Shown in pieces: positions 2,356 to 13,945 of a stretch of 64,000 nucleotides of DNA. Source of the stretch: an uncultured Bdellovibrionales bacterium (GTDB lineage Bacteria; Bdellovibrionota; UBA1018; CAIPTA01); contig CAZKBU010000002.1 of the NCBI GenBank assembly GCA_964551325.1, positions 269,861 through 333,860 on the forward strand, read 5' to 3'. How positions within the stretch are numbered: position 1 is the stretch's first letter; each line of letters begins with the position of its first letter. Below the pieces are notes generated by a model. That model did no database searches. It saw only the letters and a program-made list of their open reading frames with translations, and had not been told where the DNA came from. The translations under genes were made by a program, and so were the position numbers.

Positions 2356-2458
2356 TTCATCTAGCGACAACGCCCGCAAAATTCAAGTATCTTATTGATT
2401 TTATTGGTTTTTTATAAAATTGCTCGCCCCAATTTCCAATTCAATTAATTGACTATTT

Positions 2459-3814
2459 ATGTTAAGTATTAAGCCATCTATGGTTCATTCAGATTTTCTA
2501 AAACCCCGCAGAGATCCAAGTGCAGTTTCGCGCCATATGGCCAAGCTTCTAAAATCACCGGAGATCAAGAGAATGAGGAGCTACGGCGACTTGTTTTCAG
2601 AGTTTCATTTGAAATTCACCACGACCGATCAAGTGCGCGGACGCAACGTAGTGATTAACGGAACTCCAGTGATCAATTTCGGTTCCGCCAACTATCTCGG
2701 ATTGGACTCCCACCCTGCCGTGCTCAATGCCGCTAAGAATTCCCTTACGAAATGGGGGAATCATTCTGGCTGCTCTCGAATATTTTCATCACACAAAAAT
2801 CTTGTGGTTCTGGAGCAAAAGATTGCTGAAATTACCGGCGCCGAAGCCGCAATGGTATGCGTGAACACCTCGCAAACACACCAAGGCGCGATTCCAGCGC
2901 TGTTTGGCAGGAAGGACACCACCCTCTTTCTGGATCGCTATGCCCACACCAGCATGCATCAAGCGGGGCTGATCGCAACCGCAAAAGGAGCCACCTTGGT
3001 TCGCACCGACATCCGCGATCTGCGATCAGTAGAGAACCAACTCAAGCAAGACAATTCCGAGACAAAGGTAATTCTTGTAGATGGTGTCTATAGCATGCAA
3101 GGAACCGTGCCCGACCTTAGAAAACTCCAAGAAGTGTGCACACGCACAAACACCCTGCTCTATATCGACGACGCACACGGGATTGGAATCTACGGAAAAC
3201 GCGGCGGCGGCGTAGTGGAAGCCCAAGGTCTTCACTATAAAAATCTGATTCTCGCCGGAACTCTTCAGAAAGGTCTCGGAGCCTTTGGCGGCTTCATTGC
3301 CGGATGCCAATCCTTAATTGACTTTCTCCGCGCCACGAGTCGTTCCTACATTTTTTCAGGAACCATTCAACCACAGGCCGTAGAAGGAGCCCTTGCGGCT
3401 ATTGCCATCAGTGATTCCGATGAAGGCAGAACCCTTCGCGCAAGACTGAGCGAAAAGTCCCGGCACATCCGCAAAGAACTTCTTAAACTGGGCTTTCAAG
3501 TGACCGACGGCGACTCTCCCATTATTTCTGTTTTGATTGGGCCCGAATTGCGCACACTAATGGCAGGAAGAAAGCTCTTCGACGAGGGGCTTTACATCAA
3601 TTCGGTTCTCTTCCCCGCTACACCTCGGGATGAGGGGCTGCTTAGAATCTCCCTTAATGCCAATCACACGGATGAGCAGATCGCGCACCTCTTGAAATCG
3701 TTTTCTTCTCTGAAAATCTACCTCAATGAATTCTATAAGCCGTGGGGACCGAACCTGATCTATGCAAGACAGATCGTCAGGCGGCAGGCAAAAAAAATTA
3801 GACTGCTCGCCTAG
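2459..3814 (+). CDS. PLP-dependent alpha-oxoamine synthase (serine palmitoyltransferase / BioF / Kbl family); Spt-like
   Basis: 451 aa. 'NFGSANYLGL' substrate loop and 'YIDDAHGIGIYG' PLP region. The Schiff-base lysine context 'SGTLQKGLGAFGG' is diagnostic of the AONS/SPT family. A ~50-aa N-terminal extension resembles bacterial Spt. The AT-rich promoter-like region at 2356-2458 contains TTGACT. Confidence 0.75.
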   Translation: MLSIKPSMVHSDFLKPRRDPSAVSRHMAKLLKSPEIKRMRSYGDLFSEFHLKFTTTDQVRGRNVVINGTPVINFGSANYLGLDSHPAVLNAAKNSLTKWGNHSGCSRIFSSHKNLVVLEQKIAEITGAEAAMVCVNTSQTHQGAIPALFGRKDTTLFLDRYAHTSMHQAGLIATAKGATLVRTDIRDLRSVENQLKQDNSETKVILVDGVYSMQGTVPDLRKLQEVCTRTNTLLYIDDAHGIGIYGKRGGGVVEAQGLHYKNLILAGTLQKGLGAFGGFIAGCQSLIDFLRATSRSYIFSGTIQPQAVEGALAAIAISDSDEGRTLRARLSEKSRHIRKELLKLGFQVTDGDSPIISVLIGPELRTLMAGRKLFDEGLYINSVLFPATPRDEGLLRISLNANHTDEQIAHLLKSFSSLKIYLNEFYKPWGPNLIYARQIVRRQAKKIRLLA

Positions 3815-3820
3815 GTAAAC

Positions 3821-4918
3821 ATGAAACTTTCCTGCACTGAGACGTCTCCTCATGAAACACGCCGGGCGTATCTCGATCTTTGGAAAGTACACAAAAAAGG
3901 ATTCGACTCGTTTTCCTTTCCCGATGTTTTTTTCGAAAAACTGATCACCGGTGATTTCGTATTCCTGCGCAATCACTTCACGCTTAAAACTCTTTGCCTT
4001 ACGCGATCGGAAAAGCCAATTCTCATGGCAACAATTTTCCTGCCGAAAAGACCCGGAGCTTCGCTTGCCAACCTACGCGCTTCGATCGGAGCGTTTGCTT
4101 ACGCTCCCGAAATCCAAGAAGAAGAATCCAGGTATTTTTGGAACTGGGTACAGAATCGATATGCCGAACTAGATCCCATTGGCCCCATGAATGGCCACTA
4201 CTATCTTGGCTTCAGCCTTCCTCCCGATAACGCCGACGGCAAAAAAATCGGTTTTCAAACAGCCGCTCCTCATAGAAATCAGCGTCGTGTTTTTGGTCAC
4301 TTCGAAAGCGTGCCTCCGCTTAGAACTTTCCATTCATTTGAAACACCGCTGAACCAGGCGTTGGTCGAGAAAATCGAGTCAAAGATCGAAACTCCGCCAC
4401 CGGGCATCCGCATTCGACCGTTTCGAGCAACCACCGCCCGCCGGGATCTTGCTGTAATGAATGACCTGGTGAACAAATGTTTTACTGAACATTTTGGCTT
4501 TGTACCTCTCACAGAAGAGGAGAATTGGGACATTTCCCGCTGGTCGATCCCGCTCTTTCGACGCGGCCATTTCCTGTTTATTGAGGACTCCGGAAAGCCG
4601 ATTGGTTTTTGTTTCGGAACCCTAGACTTCAATCAAGTAATGCGAAATGGGAGCGACTTAGGGAACTTAGGAAGAATGCTTCTGCCCGGAACCATTCCCA
4701 GAGCCAGAATGATTCACAAAGGTGTTCTGCCGGAGTACCAGGGCCAAGGCCTTGTGAATCAGGCTCGCCACCGCATTCTTCTCTCTTTCGCCAAGTCCGG
4801 AGTAAAAACAGTTGAAAACTCCTACGTTGACGAAGGCAACGTAAAATCATTGAGTAATGTGCGCTCTACGGGTGCTATCCCCTTGCACAATTTCCATCTG
4901 CACCACCTCGCCAGGTGA
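3821..4918 (+). CDS. Hypothetical protein with C-terminal GNAT-like acyl-CoA N-acyltransferase fold; candidate N-acyltransferase (ceramide-synthase-like?)
   Basis: 365 aa, starting 7 bp after the Spt-like gene so in the same operon. The C-terminal 'KGVLPEYQGQGLVNQARHRILLSFAKSGVKTVENSYVDEGN' resembles the GNAT acyl-CoA-binding motif A/B region. The N-terminal ~230 aa have no motif I recognise. Confidence 0.4.
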   Translation: MKLSCTETSPHETRRAYLDLWKVHKKGFDSFSFPDVFFEKLITGDFVFLRNHFTLKTLCLTRSEKPILMATIFLPKRPGASLANLRASIGAFAYAPEIQEEESRYFWNWVQNRYAELDPIGPMNGHYYLGFSLPPDNADGKKIGFQTAAPHRNQRRVFGHFESVPPLRTFHSFETPLNQALVEKIESKIETPPPGIRIRPFRATTARRDLAVMNDLVNKCFTEHFGFVPLTEEENWDISRWSIPLFRRGHFLFIEDSGKPIGFCFGTLDFNQVMRNGSDLGNLGRMLLPGTIPRARMIHKGVLPEYQGQGLVNQARHRILLSFAKSGVKTVENSYVDEGNVKSLSNVRSTGAIPLHNFHLHHLAR

Positions 4919-5063
4919 CGAGGCCGCACCAGCCCCAGGCATTTTCATGTATCTTCCTGTGCCGTGGGGTGTTATGTTGCCTCCCTTAACTGCTTCTTTT
5001 GAGACCTAGGGCATTGGGCCCAAGAATCCTCCTGAGCGGCTCCCAGCCTTTAGAGGAGGATTT

Positions 5064-5351
5064 ATGGGAAAGAAAATCTACGTCGGCAATCTGAGCTACA
5101 ACACCAACGACAACAGTCTGCAAGAGGCCTTCTCGGCTTACGGCACCGTGGAATCTGCAAAAGTGATCACGGATCGCGACACCGGCCGCAGCAAGGGCTT
5201 TGGTTTCGTGGAAATGTCTTCTGATGCGGAAGCCAGTGCTGCAATCAGCAAGCTCAACGGTCAAGACATCGACGGCCGTGCCGTAAATGTGAGCGAAGCC
5301 AAGCCTATGGCGCCCCGAGAAAATCGCGGATTCAGCCGCAACCGATACTGA
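5064..5351 (+). CDS. RRM-domain RNA-binding protein (glycine/arginine-rich C-terminus)
   Basis: 95 aa. RNP2 'IYVGNL' and RNP1 'KGFGFVEM' motifs. GGAGGA RBS 7 nt upstream. 145-nt 5' leader. Confidence 0.85.
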   Translation: MGKKIYVGNLSYNTNDNSLQEAFSAYGTVESAKVITDRDTGRSKGFGFVEMSSDAEASAAISKLNGQDIDGRAVNVSEAKPMAPRENRGFSRNRY

Positions 5352-5360
5352 GCGTAGCGG

Positions 5361-5606
5361 TTGTCACGAGACGATTTGCTTCAGGTGGAAGGTCGCGTGA
5401 CCATAGCCACCGGTGGAGGCGACTACCATATCCAGTTGGATGGTGGTCCCTCCGTTACCGCTCGGATCGGCGGCAAGATGAAAAAGTTCAAGATCCGCAT
5501 TTTGGTGGGTGATCGGGTAACCGTCGCCCTTTCCCCCTACGACCTTACTCACGGACTCATCGTCCATCGTCATAAGCCTGGCTACATTCCTGGAGGTTCA
5601 TCATGA
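5361..5606 (+). CDS. infA: Translation initiation factor IF-1
   Basis: 81 aa. S1-like fold 'VEGRVT...GGKMKKFKIRILVGDRVTVALSPYDLTHGLIV' aligns with E. coli InfA ([31 protein letters not shown]). Confidence 0.85.
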   Translation: MSRDDLLQVEGRVTIATGGGDYHIQLDGGPSVTARIGGKMKKFKIRILVGDRVTVALSPYDLTHGLIVHRHKPGYIPGGSS

Positions 5607-6581: not shown

Positions 6582-7709
6582 ATGGGAAAGAAGCGCGTCA
6601 TCGTTTTGTATGGGGGTAAGAGCGGCGAACATGAGGTTTCGCTCCAATCGGCCGCATCCGTTATCCGCAACCTCGATAAAAACAAGTTTGATGTAGTTCC
6701 GGTTGGTATCGATAAAGACGGTCGCTGGCACTATCACGACCTCTCTTTGATCGAGAGCCAGAAGGGCAAAGAACTACCCATCTTCAAAAATCAGCCCGAA
6801 GTCACCCTCGTAAACCGCAATGAAGCGGCCCTTGTTCCCATAGGAAATGGAGCTCCAACTCTCCCCCCCCAGGTCGATGTTGTTTTCCCCGTTATGCACG
6901 GCCCCCTCTGCGAAGACGGCACGATTCAAGGCATGATGGAAATCGCCGACGTAGCCTATGTGGGCTCAGGCGTCCTCGGATCCGCGATCGGCATGGACAA
7001 GGATTTGGCCAAACGTTTGGCTCAATTAGCGGGCTGCCCGATTGCCCCCTATGTTTCTCTCAAAAAATCCGACTGGGAGTCGAATCGAGAAGCCATAGTT
7101 GCACGAGCAAGGGGGGCATTCCCTCTCCCCGTGTTTGTGAAACCGGCCAACATGGGCTCCAGTGTGGGGGTACACAAGATTAAGGATTGGAAAGATCTCC
7201 CGCAGGCGCTCCAAGACGCCTTTCAGTACGACGAAAAAGTTTTAGTGGAGAAGGGAATCGATGCCCGCGAAATCGAAGTCGCGGTACTGGAATCCAGCCG
7301 TTCGGGTGAAACTCATCTCACCGGCGTTCCGGGGGAAGTGCGGCCCACTGGATCCCACGATTTCTACTCCTACGAATCAAAGTACCTCGACGAAAACGGC
7401 GCCGAGCTTATTCTCCCCGCCAAACTCACCGACCCTCAGGCCGAAGAATGCCGCGCGCTAGCGGTAAAGATTTTCGATGCGCTGGAACTTTCCGGCATGG
7501 CTCGTGTCGACTTCCTCATGGACAAGCGCACGGGAACTTTTTACTTCAATGAAGTGAATACCATCCCCGGTTTCACTTCGATCAGCATGTACCCAAAGAT
7601 GATGGAAGCCTCGGGAATACCCTACGGCGAACTTCTCACTCGCCTCGTGGATCTCGCCTTGCGACGACACGAGAGACGGAAAGCTCTTCGGCGCGACTTT
7701 AAGAGCTAA
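6582..7709 (+). CDS. ddl: D-alanine--D-alanine ligase
   Basis: 375 aa. 'RVIVLYGGKSGEHEVSLQSA' N-terminus, ATP-grasp core 'REIEVAVLE', C-terminal 'EVNTIPGFTSISMYPKMMEASG'. Confidence 0.9.
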   Translation: MGKKRVIVLYGGKSGEHEVSLQSAASVIRNLDKNKFDVVPVGIDKDGRWHYHDLSLIESQKGKELPIFKNQPEVTLVNRNEAALVPIGNGAPTLPPQVDVVFPVMHGPLCEDGTIQGMMEIADVAYVGSGVLGSAIGMDKDLAKRLAQLAGCPIAPYVSLKKSDWESNREAIVARARGAFPLPVFVKPANMGSSVGVHKIKDWKDLPQALQDAFQYDEKVLVEKGIDAREIEVAVLESSRSGETHLTGVPGEVRPTGSHDFYSYESKYLDENGAELILPAKLTDPQAEECRALAVKIFDALELSGMARVDFLMDKRTGTFYFNEVNTIPGFTSISMYPKMMEASGIPYGELLTRLVDLALRRHERRKALRRDFKS

Positions 7710-8784
7710 GCCGACGAAGAATCGCCCGACGAGCCGGTATTTCGATCCATCGATACACCAGCACCGACACTCCCAGGATCAGTCCCATCACAACAATCGT
7801 AAACAAGATGGGGTCCACCGTGTTCTTACTACGAATCGCGGAGGCCCAGTCGCGCAGTGGAACGTGAAGAATGTAGAGCGCATAGCTCGCTTCTCCGAGA
7901 AGCTCGAGCCAAGGAGGCGCCCGCCCCGGAAGAAAGGCGAGGACCAAAATGAGGGCGGCGAAAAAGGGAGCCAGGAGGATTCCATTAAGCCAAAGGTAGG
8001 GCAGTTCAGGCGCTGCGGCGATTCCCCAGAAAACACCGCCCAGCCCAATGCTACCAATCAGCCAGCTCAATCGCGGGTTTTCCCAGGCCCGAAAAAGCCG
8101 CGCCAGAAAAATACCCATCACAAACTCAGGCAAGTGCGCAATCGGATGGGTTTGCACGAAATCCGACCACCACCCCAGGCTGTCGGGCTTATTTTGATTC
8201 AGTCCGTTCCACATCATGGCCGCAGGTTCCACCCAAAACGTGGCTCCTTGAATTAGCCAACCGATGCCCAAAGAAAAAGCTAGCCCGATGAGAGCCCCTC
8301 GAAGGGAACTTCCCACGCGAAGTCGTAAAAAAAACGGAAAGAGCAGGTAGAAAAACATTTCCGCATGAATCGACCATGCCGGATAGTTCACAATGCCGGC
8401 ATCGGGAAACCAGGATCCCAAAAAACCGAGATGCACGGCGAGGTATCCCCAAATCTTCGCCCCCTCACCCGTTCGGGCGAGTGCCATCCAGGCGGGAACG
8501 GCCCCTAAAGCGAGCCCGATCCAAAATGCCGGCACGATGCGGGCAAAACGTTTCACCAGAAACTCTCCCCAGCCCACGGACAGCTGGCGAGAATAGGTGT
8601 GCTCCAAAACAAAACCAGACAGCACAAAGAAAAAGGGAACGAAAATATATCCCGTTCTCACAAGGTGCAAAAACAACTCCGGCACATCTTGATCAAAAGA
8701 AGGGTTCCAACGGGGAATCAAGTGGAAGCAAAACACTCCGAAGGCGGCAAAGAATCGAGCGGCCGTGAGATAGGAAAGCTTCAT
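7699..8784 (-). CDS. Acyltransferase family 3 (OafA/YrhL-like membrane O-acyltransferase)
   Basis: 361 aa, polytopic. N-terminal 'FFAAFGVFCFHL', 10+ hydrophobic segments and a conserved His-rich first TM typical of Acyl_transf_3. Confidence 0.7.
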   Translation of the reverse strand: MKLSYLTAARFFAAFGVFCFHLIPRWNPSFDQDVPELFLHLVRTGYIFVPFFFVLSGFVLEHTYSRQLSVGWGEFLVKRFARIVPAFWIGLALGAVPAWMALARTGEGAKIWGYLAVHLGFLGSWFPDAGIVNYPAWSIHAEMFFYLLFPFFLRLRVGSSLRGALIGLAFSLGIGWLIQGATFWVEPAAMMWNGLNQNKPDSLGWWSDFVQTHPIAHLPEFVMGIFLARLFRAWENPRLSWLIGSIGLGGVFWGIAAAPELPYLWLNGILLAPFFAALILVLAFLPGRAPPWLELLGEASYALYILHVPLRDWASAIRSKNTVDPILFTIVVMGLILGVSVLVYRWIEIPARRAILRRLSS

Positions 8785-8811
8785 CTAACCTAAAGGATAG
8801 ATTCCAGAGGC

Positions 8812-10320
8812 CTAACGAGGAAGCGCCTTTTTCAGAATCTTCCCGCTTTCTCCTTTAGGAAGCTCCTTTAGCTGTTCCCAGTGCTTGGGAATCTTATAGC
8901 GAGCCAAGCGACCATCGCAGTAGCGCAAAAGCTCTTCTGGCGTGATGGGGCCTTGGTCCAGGGAAGAATAGAATGCCTTGCCCACTTCACCCCATTTGGA
9001 ATCCGCTACGCCAACCACGGCTACTTCGTGAATTCGAGGATAAGCCCGAAGGACCTGCTCAATCTCCGCCGGATACACGTTCTCAGCACCGGAAATGAAC
9101 ATGTCCTTCTTTCTTCCTACAACGTAAAAATAGCCTTCATTATCGCGCTTCACGAGGTCACCCGTGTGGAACCACCCGTCGCGAATCGAATCACGAGTGG
9201 CCGCTTCGTTTTTCCAGTAGCCGGGCGTACAAGCGGGCCCTCGCAAGCAAAGCTCGCCTACCTGACCGGAACCGAAAAGCTCGAGTCCATCGTTGTCGAC
9301 GATCTTCACGTCGATATAGAAGTTAGGGAATCCAATAGAACCGATCTTCCGAATCGCGTCTTCTTCATTCAAAGAAAATACATTGGGCCCGAATTCAGTG
9401 AGTCCATAGCCCTGCCGCACAGGAACACCCTTTTCTCCCCATACACGGATCAGTTCCACGGGCATTGGCTCTCCGCCCACAATCGCATAACGAACCGATG
9501 GAAGCTCCACTTCATGGAAAGCCGGTGTTCTCACCATCATGTCCATCATCGTGGGAACACCAAAAAGAACCGTGACCTTCTCCGAAGCCGCCAGACGCAT
9601 CACTCGATCCGCGTCAAATTTTTTCAGCATCAATACTCTAGCGCCGTGATGAAGGAACGGCGTCGTCAACACGTTCCATCCGGACGTATGAAACATCGGA
9701 TGAAAGATAATGGTCGCGTCCCGGGGAGTGATATTGAGGCGCAATCCGGTGTTGACTGAATTCCAGAACAGCATCTGATTCGTAATCAGAGCCCCCTTCG
9801 GCGCTCCCGTGGTGCCCGATGTATAGAGCACCATCACCGGAGACTCAAAGTCGCCGACCACAGGCAGATCGCCGCTCATCACTGAATCCGTGAAGAGAAC
9901 CGCCGCTAAAGAGTTCGGGCCTTCGAACGGAAGCGTTTGCTCTGGCTTGTGATTCAACTCTCTAACGATCCCTTCGTAAGGTTGCTGATAGAACAGAACC
10001 TTGGATTCACTGTCGGAGAGCACATGCTCCACTTCCCTGGGAGAGAGACGATAATTGATGGGAACCAGCATCGCCCCAAGTCTCTGAAGAGCGAAAAACA
10101 AAAACACCATTTCCGGCTCGTTCATAGCCAAGGTGGCCACGCGATCGCCGCGCCCAACCTTAAACCGATTTCGCAGCTCTATGGCCAGGTGACTCGATCG
10201 CTCAAAAAGCTCTAGATAGGTAAAAGCACGGCCGGAGTCGAGACACTGGAGCGCGACGTTTTTTGGCGAATACATCGCCCAACGTTTCAACCAATCCAGT
10301 TCGATCGCGGATTCTTTCAT
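8812..10320 (-). CDS. AMP-dependent synthetase/ligase (long-chain fatty acid--CoA / acyl-ACP ligase family)
   Basis: 502 aa. AMP-binding motif 'LYTSGTTGAPKGA' and downstream 'GYGLTE' and 'WFHTGDL' motifs. Confidence 0.85.
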   Translation of the reverse strand: MKESAIELDWLKRWAMYSPKNVALQCLDSGRAFTYLELFERSSHLAIELRNRFKVGRGDRVATLAMNEPEMVFLFFALQRLGAMLVPINYRLSPREVEHVLSDSESKVLFYQQPYEGIVRELNHKPEQTLPFEGPNSLAAVLFTDSVMSGDLPVVGDFESPVMVLYTSGTTGAPKGALITNQMLFWNSVNTGLRLNITPRDATIIFHPMFHTSGWNVLTTPFLHHGARVLMLKKFDADRVMRLAASEKVTVLFGVPTMMDMMVRTPAFHEVELPSVRYAIVGGEPMPVELIRVWGEKGVPVRQGYGLTEFGPNVFSLNEEDAIRKIGSIGFPNFYIDVKIVDNDGLELFGSGQVGELCLRGPACTPGYWKNEAATRDSIRDGWFHTGDLVKRDNEGYFYVVGRKKDMFISGAENVYPAEIEQVLRAYPRIHEVAVVGVADSKWGEVGKAFYSSLDQGPITPEELLRYCDGRLARYKIPKHWEQLKELPKGESGKILKKALPR

Positions 10321-10327
10321 AAATTCG

Positions 10328-11338
10328 CTAGGTGTCGTAGGCCCACTCGAGGGCTACGGAAGCCATAGCTACTCCGCCGCCAGAACCCACGAGTACGAGT
10401 AGATCACCCTTTTTCAGTGCTTTTTTACTTACGGCGTCGGCCAGAGCCATCGGGATACAAGCGGATCCGGTATACCCGTATCGATCCATGATGTTCCAGC
10501 TCTTCTCACGGGGGAGATCCATGTTGTCCATAGTGGCCTCTATCGTGCCGATATTGATCTGGGTGAGAAAGAACTGACTTACGTCTTCCTTCTTCCGGTT
10601 GGCACGATCCAAAAGAGCATTGATCAGTCGCGGCCAACCCTCGGAGTTGGTTTCGAGCGGAATCTTCTTCGCAAAGCGAAGCTGATGATCCTTCCGATCA
10701 ATCACCTCGTGGGTAATAGGCATGAAGGTGCCCCCCGCATAAATGCCCATGTAGTCGTGATACTGCCCTTCGGTATGAAGCTTGGAGGCGAGAATTCCTC
10801 CCTTTTCTCCTGGAGCCGCCCGCTTCAAGACCACTGCTCCCGCACCGTCGGCAAAGAGGCTCGTGATCTTGTAGTCGTCCCAGTTTAGATGCTTGCTCAT
10901 CCCGTAAGCGCCCACCACCACCACCGTGCGATAGCGTTCATCGGCCTGCATGTACTTTGAGCCCATATCGAGCGCCGTAACAAATCCGGCGCACGCGGTG
11001 TTCACGTCGAAACAGCCTGCGTTCTTGAACCCCATCCTGTGCTGCACCACCGATGCGGTGGACGGCGAGATATAGTCGGGAGTGTCGGTGGCCACGATTA
11101 AAAGATCCACATCGTCGGCGGTAACTTTCCCGTTCTTCAGCGCCTCTTCAACAGCAGGAACGATCAAATCACTCGTGATCTGAGTGGGGGCCATAAAGTG
11201 ACGCTGGCGAATATTCCGCTTTTCGACCAAAAACTGTTCTATGGACGGATTCTTATAAAGTTCGGCGAAGTAAGAGTTGGGAACTACCCGCTCTGGGACA
11301 TACATTCCGGTTCCTGCAATAATAACTCTATGCGTCAT
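10328..11338 (-). CDS. 3-oxoacyl-ACP synthase III (KAS III / FabH-like)
   Basis: Trimmed to 'MTHRVIIAGTGMYVP', which has a perfect AGGAGG RBS (the ORF-track start is 11407). Thiolase-fold motifs 'GCFDVNTACAGF' (active-site Cys) and 'GSGGGVAMASVALEW' C-terminus. Confidence 0.8.
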   Translation of the reverse strand: MTHRVIIAGTGMYVPERVVPNSYFAELYKNPSIEQFLVEKRNIRQRHFMAPTQITSDLIVPAVEEALKNGKVTADDVDLLIVATDTPDYISPSTASVVQHRMGFKNAGCFDVNTACAGFVTALDMGSKYMQADERYRTVVVVGAYGMSKHLNWDDYKITSLFADGAGAVVLKRAAPGEKGGILASKLHTEGQYHDYMGIYAGGTFMPITHEVIDRKDHQLRFAKKIPLETNSEGWPRLINALLDRANRKKEDVSQFFLTQINIGTIEATMDNMDLPREKSWNIMDRYGYTGSACIPMALADAVSKKALKKGDLLVLVGSGGGVAMASVALEWAYDT

Positions 11339-11405
11339 AACCCCTCCTAAAGGAATCCGAACGGTTCCTTGACCATCATCGAAAGCCACGGGTATACCAC
11401 CCCGC

Positions 11406-12152
11406 ATGAATATTCAATACACGTTCACCGGCAAGACAGCGATCATAACGGGCGGCGCCCAAGGCATCGGATTTGAAATCGCAAAACAGTTCCTTACGGC
11501 AGGGGCCAAAGTCGCCATCTGGGACTGGTCGGATGAGGCGCTGAGCCAAGCTCGGCAAGAGCTCTCCACCTTTGGCGACCGACTCACCACCACAAAGGTG
11601 GACGTCAGCAACATGGCCTCCTGTGTTGATGCCGCTAACCATCTTCCTGGAAGCGTGGATGTTCTTGTGAATAATGCGGGCATCACCCGCGACAAGAGTT
11701 TTAAAAAAATGACGGCCGACGAATGGCAGTCCGTAATCGACGTGAACCTTACCGGACTTTTCAACGTTACGAAGAGTCTCTTTGAAAAGTTCAATCCTCA
11801 AAGCACGGGAAAACGCATCATAAATATCTCGAGCGTCGTAGGACTCTACGGCAATTTTGGCCAAACCAATTATGCTGCAGCAAAGGCCGGCGTTATCGGC
11901 ATGACGAAAACTTGGGCACGTGAAATGGCTCGTTCGGGTTTCACCGTGAATGCCGTGGCACCTGGGTTCATCGAAACCAAGATGACCGCAGCGATGCCCG
12001 CCGAAGTGCTCAAGAGCATGGCCGAGAAGGTGCCTGCCCAGCGTCTTGGGAAAACCCAAGACATCGCCAATGCTGTTTTGTTCCTCGCTTCCGACTCCGC
12101 TTCCTACGTGAACGGAACAGTGATCAGCGTCGACGGTGGTCTCGTTCTCTGA
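11406..12152 (+). CDS. 3-oxoacyl-ACP reductase-like short-chain dehydrogenase (FabG family)
   Basis: 248 aa. 'TGGAQGIGFEIAK' Rossmann motif, 'NNAGITRD', catalytic 'YAAAKAG' (YxxxK). Confidence 0.8.
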   Translation: MNIQYTFTGKTAIITGGAQGIGFEIAKQFLTAGAKVAIWDWSDEALSQARQELSTFGDRLTTTKVDVSNMASCVDAANHLPGSVDVLVNNAGITRDKSFKKMTADEWQSVIDVNLTGLFNVTKSLFEKFNPQSTGKRIINISSVVGLYGNFGQTNYAAAKAGVIGMTKTWAREMARSGFTVNAVAPGFIETKMTAAMPAEVLKSMAEKVPAQRLGKTQDIANAVLFLASDSASYVNGTVISVDGGLVL

Positions 12153-12182
12153 TCCCAAACTGAATGAACCGAGGGGGTTCTC

Positions 12183-13175
12183 ATGCGCGTGATGTTCCAA
12201 GTGTTACTTGCAGGCCTACTCACCGCTCTGTTTGCTCAGGCAGCGGAGAGCAAAGGCGAGTTTGTAACCGTTGGACGCGGACAACAGGTTTGGGTGGAGT
12301 GGACGGAGCCTAAGCAAGGAAAGCCGGTACTTGTTCTCCTCAACGGCCTCACCTACTCCACTAAGAACTGGAACGATCTCAGTCGAGCTCTTGAGCCATC
12401 CGGATTTGGCATTCTTCGATACGACATGAAGGGCATGGGCAAGACAATGCTGAACGGCCCATTGCCGGTGAACTACTCCGTCACCTGGCAAGATCAGGTG
12501 AAAGTTCTCAAAAGTCTTTTAGGTAAGCTGAAATTGAAAAGGGTGCACCTTGTTGGCCTCAGCTACGGGGGTGGAATTGCCGCTGGCTTCTCCAATGCGT
12601 ATCCGGAAATGGTCGCCTCCACCATTCTGCTCGCCCCTTTCACGGAACCACTTCCCTCTATGGACTCCTGGATCCGCCAGCAAGTGGCCCTCACCCGGAT
12701 TGCCCAGCCTTGGAATCCTTCCACCGACGATGAACTCTACGATTTCTTTCTGAAGAACTTCATCTATTCCACCTACCCGGCAGCCGAACCGAACGTGCTC
12801 GAAAACCCCTGGAAGCTGGAAGCCATCTTTCGCATGGTGCAAGGTATTCGGAAGCTCGACGCGAAGAAGGAAACAGAGAACCTGAAACCTCGATCTGTCT
12901 ACCTCGTGGTAGCCAAAGAGGATCAGTATATTCCTCGTGGCGTAATGGACGCCTACTGGGAAGCAGTTCCGAGCCGGGCTCGCGCATCGCGCGTGATCGC
13001 CTCTTGGACGGAGCACAAGATTCCCGAAGCCGTACCACAATTTACGGCCGGCCTCATTCGTCTCTTAGTGGAGGGCGATCCAGCCCTGAGAAAAGGTGAC
13101 ACTTTCGACGCCTCCACGTTTCGAGGCGAAATCTGGAATGAGCGAGCCAAATTCAAAGTGCCAGGAGTGCGATAG
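12183..13175 (+). CDS. Secreted alpha/beta-fold hydrolase
   Basis: 330 aa. Signal peptide 'MRVMFQVLLAGLLTALFAQA'. Nucleophile elbow 'GLSYGG' (GxSxG). Confidence 0.7.
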   Translation: MRVMFQVLLAGLLTALFAQAAESKGEFVTVGRGQQVWVEWTEPKQGKPVLVLLNGLTYSTKNWNDLSRALEPSGFGILRYDMKGMGKTMLNGPLPVNYSVTWQDQVKVLKSLLGKLKLKRVHLVGLSYGGGIAAGFSNAYPEMVASTILLAPFTEPLPSMDSWIRQQVALTRIAQPWNPSTDDELYDFFLKNFIYSTYPAAEPNVLENPWKLEAIFRMVQGIRKLDAKKETENLKPRSVYLVVAKEDQYIPRGVMDAYWEAVPSRARASRVIASWTEHKIPEAVPQFTAGLIRLLVEGDPALRKGDTFDASTFRGEIWNERAKFKVPGVR

Positions 13176-13945
13176 TGATTAAGCTCAACATTCGGATTGT
13201 TCCCCAGCTCCTCCCCTTCCCCACCGTATTTCTCCCGGGAAACCTGGCGGCAAATCTTTGGTGGGAACCAGCTGTGTCGGAGTGGCAGAAGCGTGGCGGC
13301 GGAAAGCATCCGGCGATTTTAATCGAATGGCGTGGACTCGGCGGTAGCCAAGACGGAATGGATCGTCCATTTAATGTAGAGTCACTCGCCGAGGACGTAG
13401 TGGAGAACATTTGTGCCTTAGCTTTGGGTCCAGTGAACCTAGTGGGACACTCTACGGGCGGGATCATCGGTGCTGCCGCAATGGCGAATGCGCCAGAAGT
13501 TTTTCACCGTGCCATTCTCCTCGACTCCGTGGCAGCCACAGGGATTCAATTTGGTCCCGAAATGTATGCCGCTTTCGAAGCGATGAGCAAAGATGAAAAC
13601 CTATGTGCAACGGTCATTCTGTCGACGATGCACGAAGCGAATTTAAGTAACGAACTTCGGACCGGAATTGCGAAAGCCGCCTTCCATGTGCACCCGAAAA
13701 TCTGGCGCGCCGTTCCCGACATGCTGAACTCCCTGGATCTCAGGTCGGAACTCCGAGGCGTGAAGGCGCCCACACTCGTTCTTCATGGCGAACATGATGT
13801 GCTTCTTCCGATGGAAGGGTCCGAGGAACTTGCCAGAATTATTCCTGGAGCGCGTTTTTATAAAATTCCGGGCCGCGGGCATTGCACCAATGTGGAGGCG
13901 CCCGGCCTCTTCGTAGACTTGGCAAACCACCATCTCTTTGGATAA
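13175..13945 (+). CDS. Alpha/beta-fold hydrolase
   Basis: 256 aa. Nucleophile elbow 'GHSTGG', C-terminal 'HGEHD...PGRGHC' acid/His region. Start overlaps the previous stop. Confidence 0.7.
   Translation: MIKLNIRIVPQLLPFPTVFLPGNLAANLWWEPAVSEWQKRGGGKHPAILIEWRGLGGSQDGMDRPFNVESLAEDVVENICALALGPVNLVGHSTGGIIGAAAMANAPEVFHRAILLDSVAATGIQFGPEMYAAFEAMSKDENLCATVILSTMHEANLSNELRTGIAKAAFHVHPKIWRAVPDMLNSLDLRSELRGVKAPTLVLHGEHDVLLPMEGSEELARIIPGARFYKIPGRGHCTNVEAPGLFVDLANHHLFG

Follow-up and report, generated by a model that had tools for sequence, protein, structure and literature searches.

A conserved gene pair of Bdellovibrionota encoding an alpha-oxoamine synthase and a tandem-GNAT protein: probable divergent forms of serine palmitoyltransferase and bacterial ceramide synthase

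A 64,000-nucleotide stretch of the genome of an uncultured Bdellovibrionales bacterium (contig CAZKBU010000002.1 of assembly GCA_964551325.1; the whole stretch is called the window here) carries two adjacent genes, one for a pyridoxal phosphate (PLP)-dependent alpha-oxoamine synthase (AOS) and one for a protein composed of two GNAT domains in tandem (the partner). We consider it probable that they constitute a translationally coupled two-gene operon for lineage-specific forms, diverged in concert, of the enzymes that catalyze the first two steps toward bacterial ceramides, i.e., serine palmitoyltransferase (Spt) and bacterial ceramide synthase (bCerS). As judged from the sequences, the product is probably an N-acyl alpha-amino-ketone lipid backbone, which, given the divergence of the enzymes, may not be an ordinary ceramide. 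The pair is a phylum-restricted minimal form of the Spt/bCerS step pair and is known almost only from metagenome-assembled genomes (MAGs). The core idea of an earlier note on this DNA, the combination of an Spt-like AOS with an N-acyltransferase of the ceramide synthase type, was supported by the full-length homology of the partner to the E. coli protein YghO and by the invariable pairing of the two genes. The features of the pair are as follows.

2356 to 2458, no strand: AT-rich intergenic spacer of 103 bp with a G+C content of 31%
2459 to 3814, plus strand: PLP-dependent AOS of 451 residues, member of a Bdellovibrionota-specific clade (Pfam, NCBIfam, tree, and structure model)
2459 to 2632, plus strand: N-terminal extension and N-terminal helices of the AOS, residues 1 to 58, with the conserved motif SPL..L.N..LK.PE..R.K....LL..FHLKNT.T
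3269 to 3271, plus strand: codon of the Schiff-base lysine Lys271, preceded by the clade-specific Gln270
3749 to 3808, plus strand: extra C-terminal basic helix of the AOS, residues 431 to 450 (...YARQIVRRQAKKIRLLA), seen in the structure model
3821 to 4918, plus strand: tandem-GNAT N-acyltransferase of 365 residues, divergent member of the YghO/bCerS family (profile comparison and structure)
3821 to 4390, plus strand: degenerate N-terminal GNAT-like domain of the partner, residues 1 to 190, without a Pfam match and with the family motif GPMNGH (4181 to 4198)
4391 to 4915, plus strand: C-terminal GNAT domain of the partner, residues 191 to 365, presumed to be catalytic, with motifs common to YghO-type proteins
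4496 to 4522, plus strand: C-terminal GNAT motif GFVPLTEEE
4739 to 4756, plus strand: C-terminal GNAT motif QGQGLV (acyl-CoA pyrophosphate loop)
4814 to 4840, plus strand: C-terminal GNAT motif ENSYVDEGN

The two open reading frames, 2459 to 3814 and 3821 to 4918, were located where the earlier note had placed them; the TAG stop codon of the AOS gene occupies positions 3812 to 3814 and the ATG of the partner gene begins at position 3821, leaving a gap of 6 nt (TAG gtaaac ATG). An AOS gene directly followed by a tandem-GNAT gene was found in 14 of 14 distinct Bdellovibrionota loci, which were reached from both the partner and the AOS and include Pseudobdellovibrionaceae, Bdellovibrionales, Bdellovibrio sp., Bacteriovorax sp., Halobacteriovorax marinus, and Bdellovibrionaceae. 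Conservation in relatives, which the note had named as a check on its proposal, was thus observed throughout, and it argues against a chance neighborhood of the two genes. The junctions were read in seven loci; in six of them the genes are separated by 0 to 6 nt or overlap by 11 to 14 nt, and in the remaining one (L008) the gap amounts to 67 nt. An all-against-all comparison of the flanks revealed that, beyond the pair itself, nothing recurs in more than 4 to 5 of the 14 loci. Within the pair, the AOS is better conserved (43 to 63% identity) than the partner (25 to 56%); among the 14 loci, partner identities go down to 27 to 31%. An identical order, with an AOS gene immediately upstream of a tandem-GNAT gene, occurs in Ignavibacteriota, Bacteroidota, and Gemmatimonadota (loci L021 to L026 and L030). 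These pairs differ from that of the window in that their AOSs score 476 to 533 bits with the Spt-CFB model of NCBIfam, about 100 bits above any other family, and cluster with the Spt of S. multivorum at 92.5% bootstrap support, and in that their GNAT proteins pass the threshold of the Pfam model Acetyltransf_1. The neighbors were checked in two of these loci, where an epimerase-family gene (L023) and a PAP2_3 gene (L026) were found.

The affiliation of the partner was established by structure and by profile comparison. Acetyltransf_1 matched only its C-terminal half, with 19.3 bits versus a cutoff of 20.7 (E = 1.4e-3), although several relatives pass; no NCBIfam model matches either the partner or the YghO-type proteins. 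In the structure, a GNAT fold is present in both halves, and the whole protein is a tandem GNAT. The GNAT-like tail announced in the earlier note was therefore confirmed as a fold, with the Pfam hidden Markov model staying below its threshold, whereas the first ca. 230 residues, described there as unassigned, correspond to a degenerate N-terminal GNAT domain and not to a separate module. Acyltransferases of ornithine or glycine lipids, put forward in the note as alternatives, found no support; the partner has no match to those families in Pfam or NCBIfam. Pairwise similarity of the partner to single YghO-type proteins is weak (13 to 49 bits, 14 to 18% identity). When a profile of 40 Bdellovibrionota-type partners (A4) was compared by hhalign with a profile of E. 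coli YghO and Spt-adjacent tandem GNATs (A5), the two aligned end to end over 361 columns with a probability of 100% and an E value of 2.4e-41. Both families share the motifs GP, GFVP[LMF]T..E, D.N, R296, PEY[QR]G.G, and E.S[YW][IV].[ED].N. When 1.84 billion representative proteins were searched exhaustively with a profile, 54 sequences were obtained at E < 1e-30 and 1172 at E < 1e-10, and the nearest relatives beyond the partner's own subfamily were YghO-type proteins. Classification of 158 sequences (the 150 best representatives plus homologues from the first search) assigned 53 to the Bdellovibrionota type and 105 closer to YghO and a Melioribacter protein. The divergence is unevenly distributed: the N-terminal, acceptor-side domain of the partner is far more diverged than the C-terminal one and has lost the WVPPL motif of YghO-type proteins and gained GPMNGH. 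A 784-residue protein (P0147) that was considered as an Spt-bCerS fusion was rejected as such, since it consists of two complete YghO-type copies in tandem; its four GNAT domains in one open reading frame represent either a true duplication-fusion or a gene-call artifact.

YghO provides the connection to ceramide synthesis. E. coli yghO has been listed as the counterpart of Caulobacter CC_1154, an acyl-CoA N-acyltransferase required for the formation of dihydroceramide (PMC9386255); the Caulobacter function has been named bcerS (CCNA_01212) (PMC9393093), and bCerS acts directly after Spt (PMC9393093, PMC11087976). YghO and the tandem GNAT of Melioribacter are 32% identical over their full length (E = 2e-69), and the Melioribacter gene is located directly downstream of an Spt-like AOS gene and adjoins an NAD-epimerase-family gene. 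In E. coli O103 RM8385, yghO is part of a cluster with genes for a fatty acyl-AMP ligase, an NAD-epimerase-family protein, an acyl carrier protein (ACP), a protein annotated as Spt, and LptF/G paralogues (L037:8001-13598), and in strain K-12 an IS5 element occupies the place of the ligase, epimerase, ACP, and spt genes beside yghO. The K-12 gene (b2981, L036:7044-8216) is annotated as encoding a putative DNA-binding transcriptional regulator, whereas here its product is assigned to the tandem GNATs of the bCerS family. Of 5426 complete E. coli genomes, 4549 carry yghO; strain BL21 possesses the entire cluster.

As the earlier note had recognized, the upstream gene encodes an AOS, which gives an E value of 1.5e-43 with the Pfam model Aminotran_1_2 and possesses all PLP-binding and catalytic residues, i.e., His163, Ser212, Asp237, His240, Thr268, Lys271, and Arg396, which align with His138, Ser185, Asp210, His213, Thr241, and Lys244 of S. 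multivorum Spt and with the conserved arginine. Among the relatives with solved structures, S. multivorum Spt scored best with 194 bits, followed by Kbl (181), ThAOS (180), ALAS (164), BioF (158), SulA (ca. 103; range, 102 to 104), and CqsA (96); because the scores follow one another closely, this ranking is not decisive. The AlphaFold model has a predicted local distance difference test (pLDDT) value of 90.1 and is similar to BioF, Kbl, Spt, and ALAS structures alike (target-normalized TM-score of ca. 0.9; Foldseek against the PDB), so that the subfamilies are not separable by fold. The N-terminal extension described in the earlier note is real and conserved, with 58 residues preceding the AOS core compared to 28 to 38 in E. 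coli Spt, BioF, and Kbl; the conserved extension itself comprises ca. 20 to 28 residues. The extra C-terminal helix, on which the earlier note was silent, may bind the membrane or the partner. Besides the residues discussed below, GNHSGCSRIFSSH and FSGT are further active-site signature elements of the clade.

The phylogenetic position of the AOS was determined with a neighbor-joining tree (370 columns, 200 bootstraps) that took in members of the clade, the next-best database matches, Spt-like enzymes of other phyla, S. multivorum Spt, the E. coli enzymes Spt, BioF, and Kbl, Coxiella Kbl, and ThAOS; ALAS, CqsA, and SulA were not part of it. The window AOS falls within a Bdellovibrionota clade with 99.5% bootstrap support, which is joined at 100% by a sister group of orphan AOSs. 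A split uniting this clade, the sister group, and the Spts against BioF, Kbl, and ThAOS received 69% support. The placement that the earlier note had named as a second check thus puts the enzyme in a clade of its own, far from E. coli BioF. The sister group (P0080 to P0112; 35 to 41% identity), none of whose members matches the NCBIfam AOS models at E < 1e-90, is another uncharacterized lipid-type AOS family; on one long contig (L034:5673-10005), its AOS gene is accompanied by genes for a KAS, an ACP, and a small EamA-like protein. A divergent member of the Bdellovibrionota clade, P0077 (44% identity), is encoded without a GNAT partner (L032:10001-13706, GCA_019637855.1). Its gene is followed by that of a 759-residue orphan protein and lies in an island that also holds four flagellin genes, fliD and fliS, glycosyltransferase genes, and a Maf-like gene; in this context the AOS may serve another purpose, perhaps the modification of flagellin.

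Several observations weigh against the assignment of the pair to the ceramide pathway. Although the window AOS matches every NCBIfam AOS model (BioF, Kbl, Spt, ALAS, and CqsA type), it misses all curated equivalog cutoffs, with 287 bits versus 426 for bioF (TIGR00858), 257 versus 460 for Kbl, 213 versus 339 for ALAS, and 175 versus 428 for the CqsA type; for the three Spt models, the values are 258 versus 640 (Spt-CFB), 248 versus 500 (BetaP), and 198 versus 670 (AlphaP). In the neighbor-joining tree, the Bdellovibrionota clade and its sister group stand apart not only from BioF, Kbl, and ThAOS but also from the Spt clade (CFB type, 92.5%). The clade signature SANYLG places Ala77 at the position of Asn52 of S. 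multivorum Spt (position 53 of SulA), where Spts carry Asn or Tyr, a feature defined in PMC9304779. On these three grounds, the designation of the enzyme as an Spt in the earlier note was not upheld. Furthermore, the residue preceding the catalytic lysine is Gln270 in the clade, versus Ser in Spts and Gly in BioF and Kbl. No homologues of the epimerase-family reductase CerR, the dedicated ACP AcpR, or the acyl-ACP synthetase AasR were found inside the window or up to 10 kb from the pair at the 14 loci, whole genomes not having been searched; the queries were E. coli and Melioribacter proteins (for CerR, E. coli CerR and the L023 epimerase at E < 1e-3), and the sole match was a generic AMP-ligase at 8812 to 10320 of the window. 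The link of the partner to Caulobacter bCerS runs via E. coli YghO and the statement in PMC9386255. Finally, the characterized SPT of B. stolpii has been reported to group with Bacteroidetes SPTs (PMC9386255). It apparently lies outside the AOS clade described here, as we infer from its absence among the clade members, a single clade cluster being present in UniRef; a different enzyme may therefore serve these bacteria in making true sphingolipids.

Folds, catalytic residues, the homology of the partner to YghO-type proteins, and the strict gene pairing are established by the analysis, whereas substrates, chain lengths, and product are inferred. If the pair acts as versions of Spt and bCerS, which is the reading we favor, the latter would be as follows. 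The AOS would condense an amino acid with a long-chain acyl thioester under loss of CO2, giving a long-chain alpha-amino ketone resembling 3-ketosphinganine; that the amino acid is serine is assumed here by default. The C-terminal GNAT domain of the partner would then acylate the free amine, acyl-CoA being the donor of this second chain, with the degenerate N-terminal GNAT domain helping to shape the acceptor site. The result would be an N-acyl-3-keto base, i.e., a backbone of the "oxidized ceramide" type, and N-acylation would also stabilize the amino ketone, which is reactive as such. If the ketone is reduced at all, an unlinked enzyme encoded elsewhere would be responsible. The order of AOS and GNAT in this scheme is that proposed for the cytoplasmic enzymes Spt and bCerS in Caulobacter (PMC11087976).

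The same chemistry could operate with another head group, and we regard this as a possibility to be taken seriously, albeit a clearly less probable one. Here, the AOS would accept glycine, alanine, threonine, or a beta-substituted alanine in place of serine, the ketone would stay unreduced, and the product would be an N-acyl amino-ketone lipid and not a ceramide. Both enzymes have diverged together: in the AOS the changes surround the pocket for the amino-acid side chain, and in the GNAT protein they fall in the acceptor-side domain. In the AOS, four clade-conserved substitutions are located near the substrate side chain (S. multivorum Spt to window numbering: Asn52 to Ala77, Gly80 to Cys105, Ser243 to Gln270, and Ala274 to Gly301); in the partner, it is the acceptor-side domain, with its exchange of motifs, that has diverged most. 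The position of the AOS outside the Spt clade and the lack of a CerR homologue within 10 kb of the pair in the 14 loci also favor a different head group, as does the earlier description of a canonical SPT in B. stolpii (PMC9386255, PMC6148460). This joint divergence, together with the grouping of the B. stolpii SPT elsewhere, makes a non-serine head group a live possibility. On the other hand, Spts recognize serine largely via water and main-chain atoms (PMC10196870), so the substitutions of the clade are no proof of a change of substrate, and Spts of the S. paucimobilis type likewise lack Asn at position 52 (PMC9304779). In its full form, the idea is that the pair has left behind the serine and ceramide specificity of its Spt/bCerS ancestors and makes an undescribed class of membrane lipids, non-serine N-acyl long-chain alpha-amino ketones that are never reduced by CerR and are perhaps tied to predation or phosphate sparing; we give this roughly one chance in four.

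That the pair makes a small diffusible molecule, i.e., a short- or medium-chain amino ketone that is N-acylated by the GNAT protein and serves as a signal or as a protected pyrazine precursor, appears unlikely. Signal precursors are indeed made by AOSs such as CqsA/LqsA and Kbl, and the pair is self-contained across variable genomic contexts. It also constitutes the stretch of lowest G+C content of the window (0.500 for the AOS gene and 0.489 for the GNAT gene versus a window mean of 0.537), and the G+C content at third codon positions is 0.50 to 0.54 versus 0.57 to 0.65 in all neighboring genes; the pair may thus be an accessory or horizontally acquired segment, and accessory status would be in keeping with such a role. 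However, the only detectable relatives of the partner are lipid N-acyltransferases of the YghO/bCerS type, and CqsA is the most distant AOS type (96 bits versus 194 for Spt), which makes a signaling role unlikely; moreover, KAS and ACP genes accompany the AOS gene of the sister group on the contig mentioned above. It is very improbable that the AOS is a BioF or Kbl with a housekeeping role, or a SulA of the capnine type, and that the acetyltransferase beside it is unrelated: bioF is nominally the top NCBIfam match, and relatives are labeled "8-amino-7-oxononanoate synthase" or "glycine C-acetyltransferase" in public databases, but the AOS is beneath all NCBIfam cutoffs, branches apart from the E. 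coli enzymes BioF and Kbl, has no bio or tdh genes adjoining it in any locus examined (with no bioA, bioB, or bioD in the Pfam annotations or gene tables of these loci), and has Gly301 in place of the lysine diagnostic of SulA.

Compared with known systems, the pair most closely parallels Spt-bCerS-CerR of Caulobacter (CCNA_01220/01212/01222) and E. coli (spt/yghO). In both cases a PLP-dependent AOS is functionally followed by a soluble tandem-GNAT acyl-CoA N-acyltransferase of ca. 370 residues, and the window proteins, which have neither a signal peptide nor a transmembrane segment, fit the cytoplasmic location of Spt and bCerS (PMC11087976). Unlike these systems, the window AOS lies outside the Spt clade and under all Spt model cutoffs, the partner shares just 14 to 18% identity with YghO-type proteins, and no genes for CerR, AcpR, AasR, or LptFG paralogues are found near the pair. 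The gene arrangement differs as well: CCNA_01212 and CCNA_01220 are about eight locus tags apart in Caulobacter (PMC9393093) and yghO is on the opposite strand from spt in E. coli, whereas the genes of the window pair are co-oriented in a tight operon. SulA/CapB of sulfonolipid (capnine) synthesis likewise belongs to the AOS family and forms a sphingoid-like base by condensation; however, its diagnostic Lys281 (Ala in Spt; PMC9304779) corresponds to Gly301 within FSGT of the window AOS, and it scores 102 to 104 bits versus 194 for Spt. CqsA/LqsA autoinducer synthases share the AOS fold and the character of stand-alone accessory modules, but CqsA gave the weakest AOS match (96 bits; NCBIfam, 175 versus 428) and they are not paired with a GNAT protein. 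A two-domain GNAT architecture with a degenerate or inactive N-terminal and a catalytic C-terminal domain, as presumed for the partner, is found in MshD (1ozp) and MAB_4324 (7q3a), which differ from the partner in having 15% identity, no detectable sequence relationship, and different substrates.

Upstream of the pair, the spacer is preceded by a parvulin-type ppiC gene and presumably holds the regulatory region. The AT-rich dedicated promoter proposed in the earlier note stood as far as the AT-richness of the spacer is concerned; the TTGACT sequence named there as a promoter element is located at 2449 to 2454, only 4 nt ahead of the ATG at 2459, and is therefore not a possible -35 box for the AOS gene. 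A promoter and terminator scan detected no relevant sigma-70 consensus site or terminator in 2356 to 2458 or past 4918. Within the 64-kb window, Rfam and tRNA scans gave no matches, and no second AOS or tandem-GNAT gene was found. Directly 3' of the pair, the stretch from 5064 to 5606 encodes an RRM-domain RNA-binding protein and then IF-1; the RRM gene has a strong Shine-Dalgarno sequence, and a promoter-like site of its own lies at 4999 to 5027. The GNAT-RRM arrangement also occurs in three short Logan contigs. A separate lipid-type group of genes at 7699 to 13945 encodes an Acyl_transf_3 membrane acyltransferase, an acyl-AMP/CoA ligase, a KAS III, a short-chain dehydrogenase/reductase (SDR), and two alpha/beta hydrolases. 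Those genes that the earlier note had regarded as possible feeders of the pair, 4 to 8 kb away from it, namely the ligase, KAS III, and FabG-like genes, are thus present (8812 to 12152). The acyltransferase, ligase, KAS III, and SDR genes span 7699 to 12152 and have no counterpart near the pair in the other genomes examined, and RRM, IF-1, PilZ, and Ddl genes lie between them and the pair; a feeding of the module by these genes is therefore unsupported.

In other genomes, a pstSCAB-phoU-phoBR phosphate-starvation operon adjoins the pair in 2 of the 14 loci, those of Halobacteriovorax marinus (L010:875-7730) and of a Bdellovibrionaceae MAG (L033:974-7573), the latter also having pdxJ, a gene of PLP synthesis, near the pair; this neighborhood would fit a phosphate-sparing lipid, though it occurs in these two loci only. 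A WcaF-like hexapeptide-repeat acyltransferase/acetyltransferase gene lies at most 1.5 kb from the pair in three loci (L016:3818-4564, L010:11853-12509, and L009:3170-3979), one of which is labeled Bacteriovorax sp. and one Halobacteriovorax marinus, the third being a metagenome contig, and its product might be an optional tailoring enzyme. Both the pst operon and the WcaF-like transferase were rejected as parts of the module because they are too rare, and CysK, encoded beside the pair in L006, was rejected as a pathway member, as it is a normal cysteine synthase found at that locus only.

Surveys of bacterial sphingolipid synthesis identify producers by BLAST matches to known Spt, bCerS, and CerR sequences under strict cutoffs (E = 1e-30) (PMC11334938). 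Single-sequence surveys at this threshold would miss the pair: its AOS lies outside the Spt clade and its acyltransferase is recognizable only by profile or structure. For the YghO family, the analysis provides a concrete structural assignment as tandem GNATs. If a ceramide-type lipid is made, a whole phylum of predatory bacteria would have an unrecognized minimal route to such lipids, and the pair would offer a compact cassette of two genes for the production of N-acyl amino-ketone bases. With a different head group, the pair would stand for a new lipid class and for a natural case in which two consecutive enzymes have shifted their specificity together.

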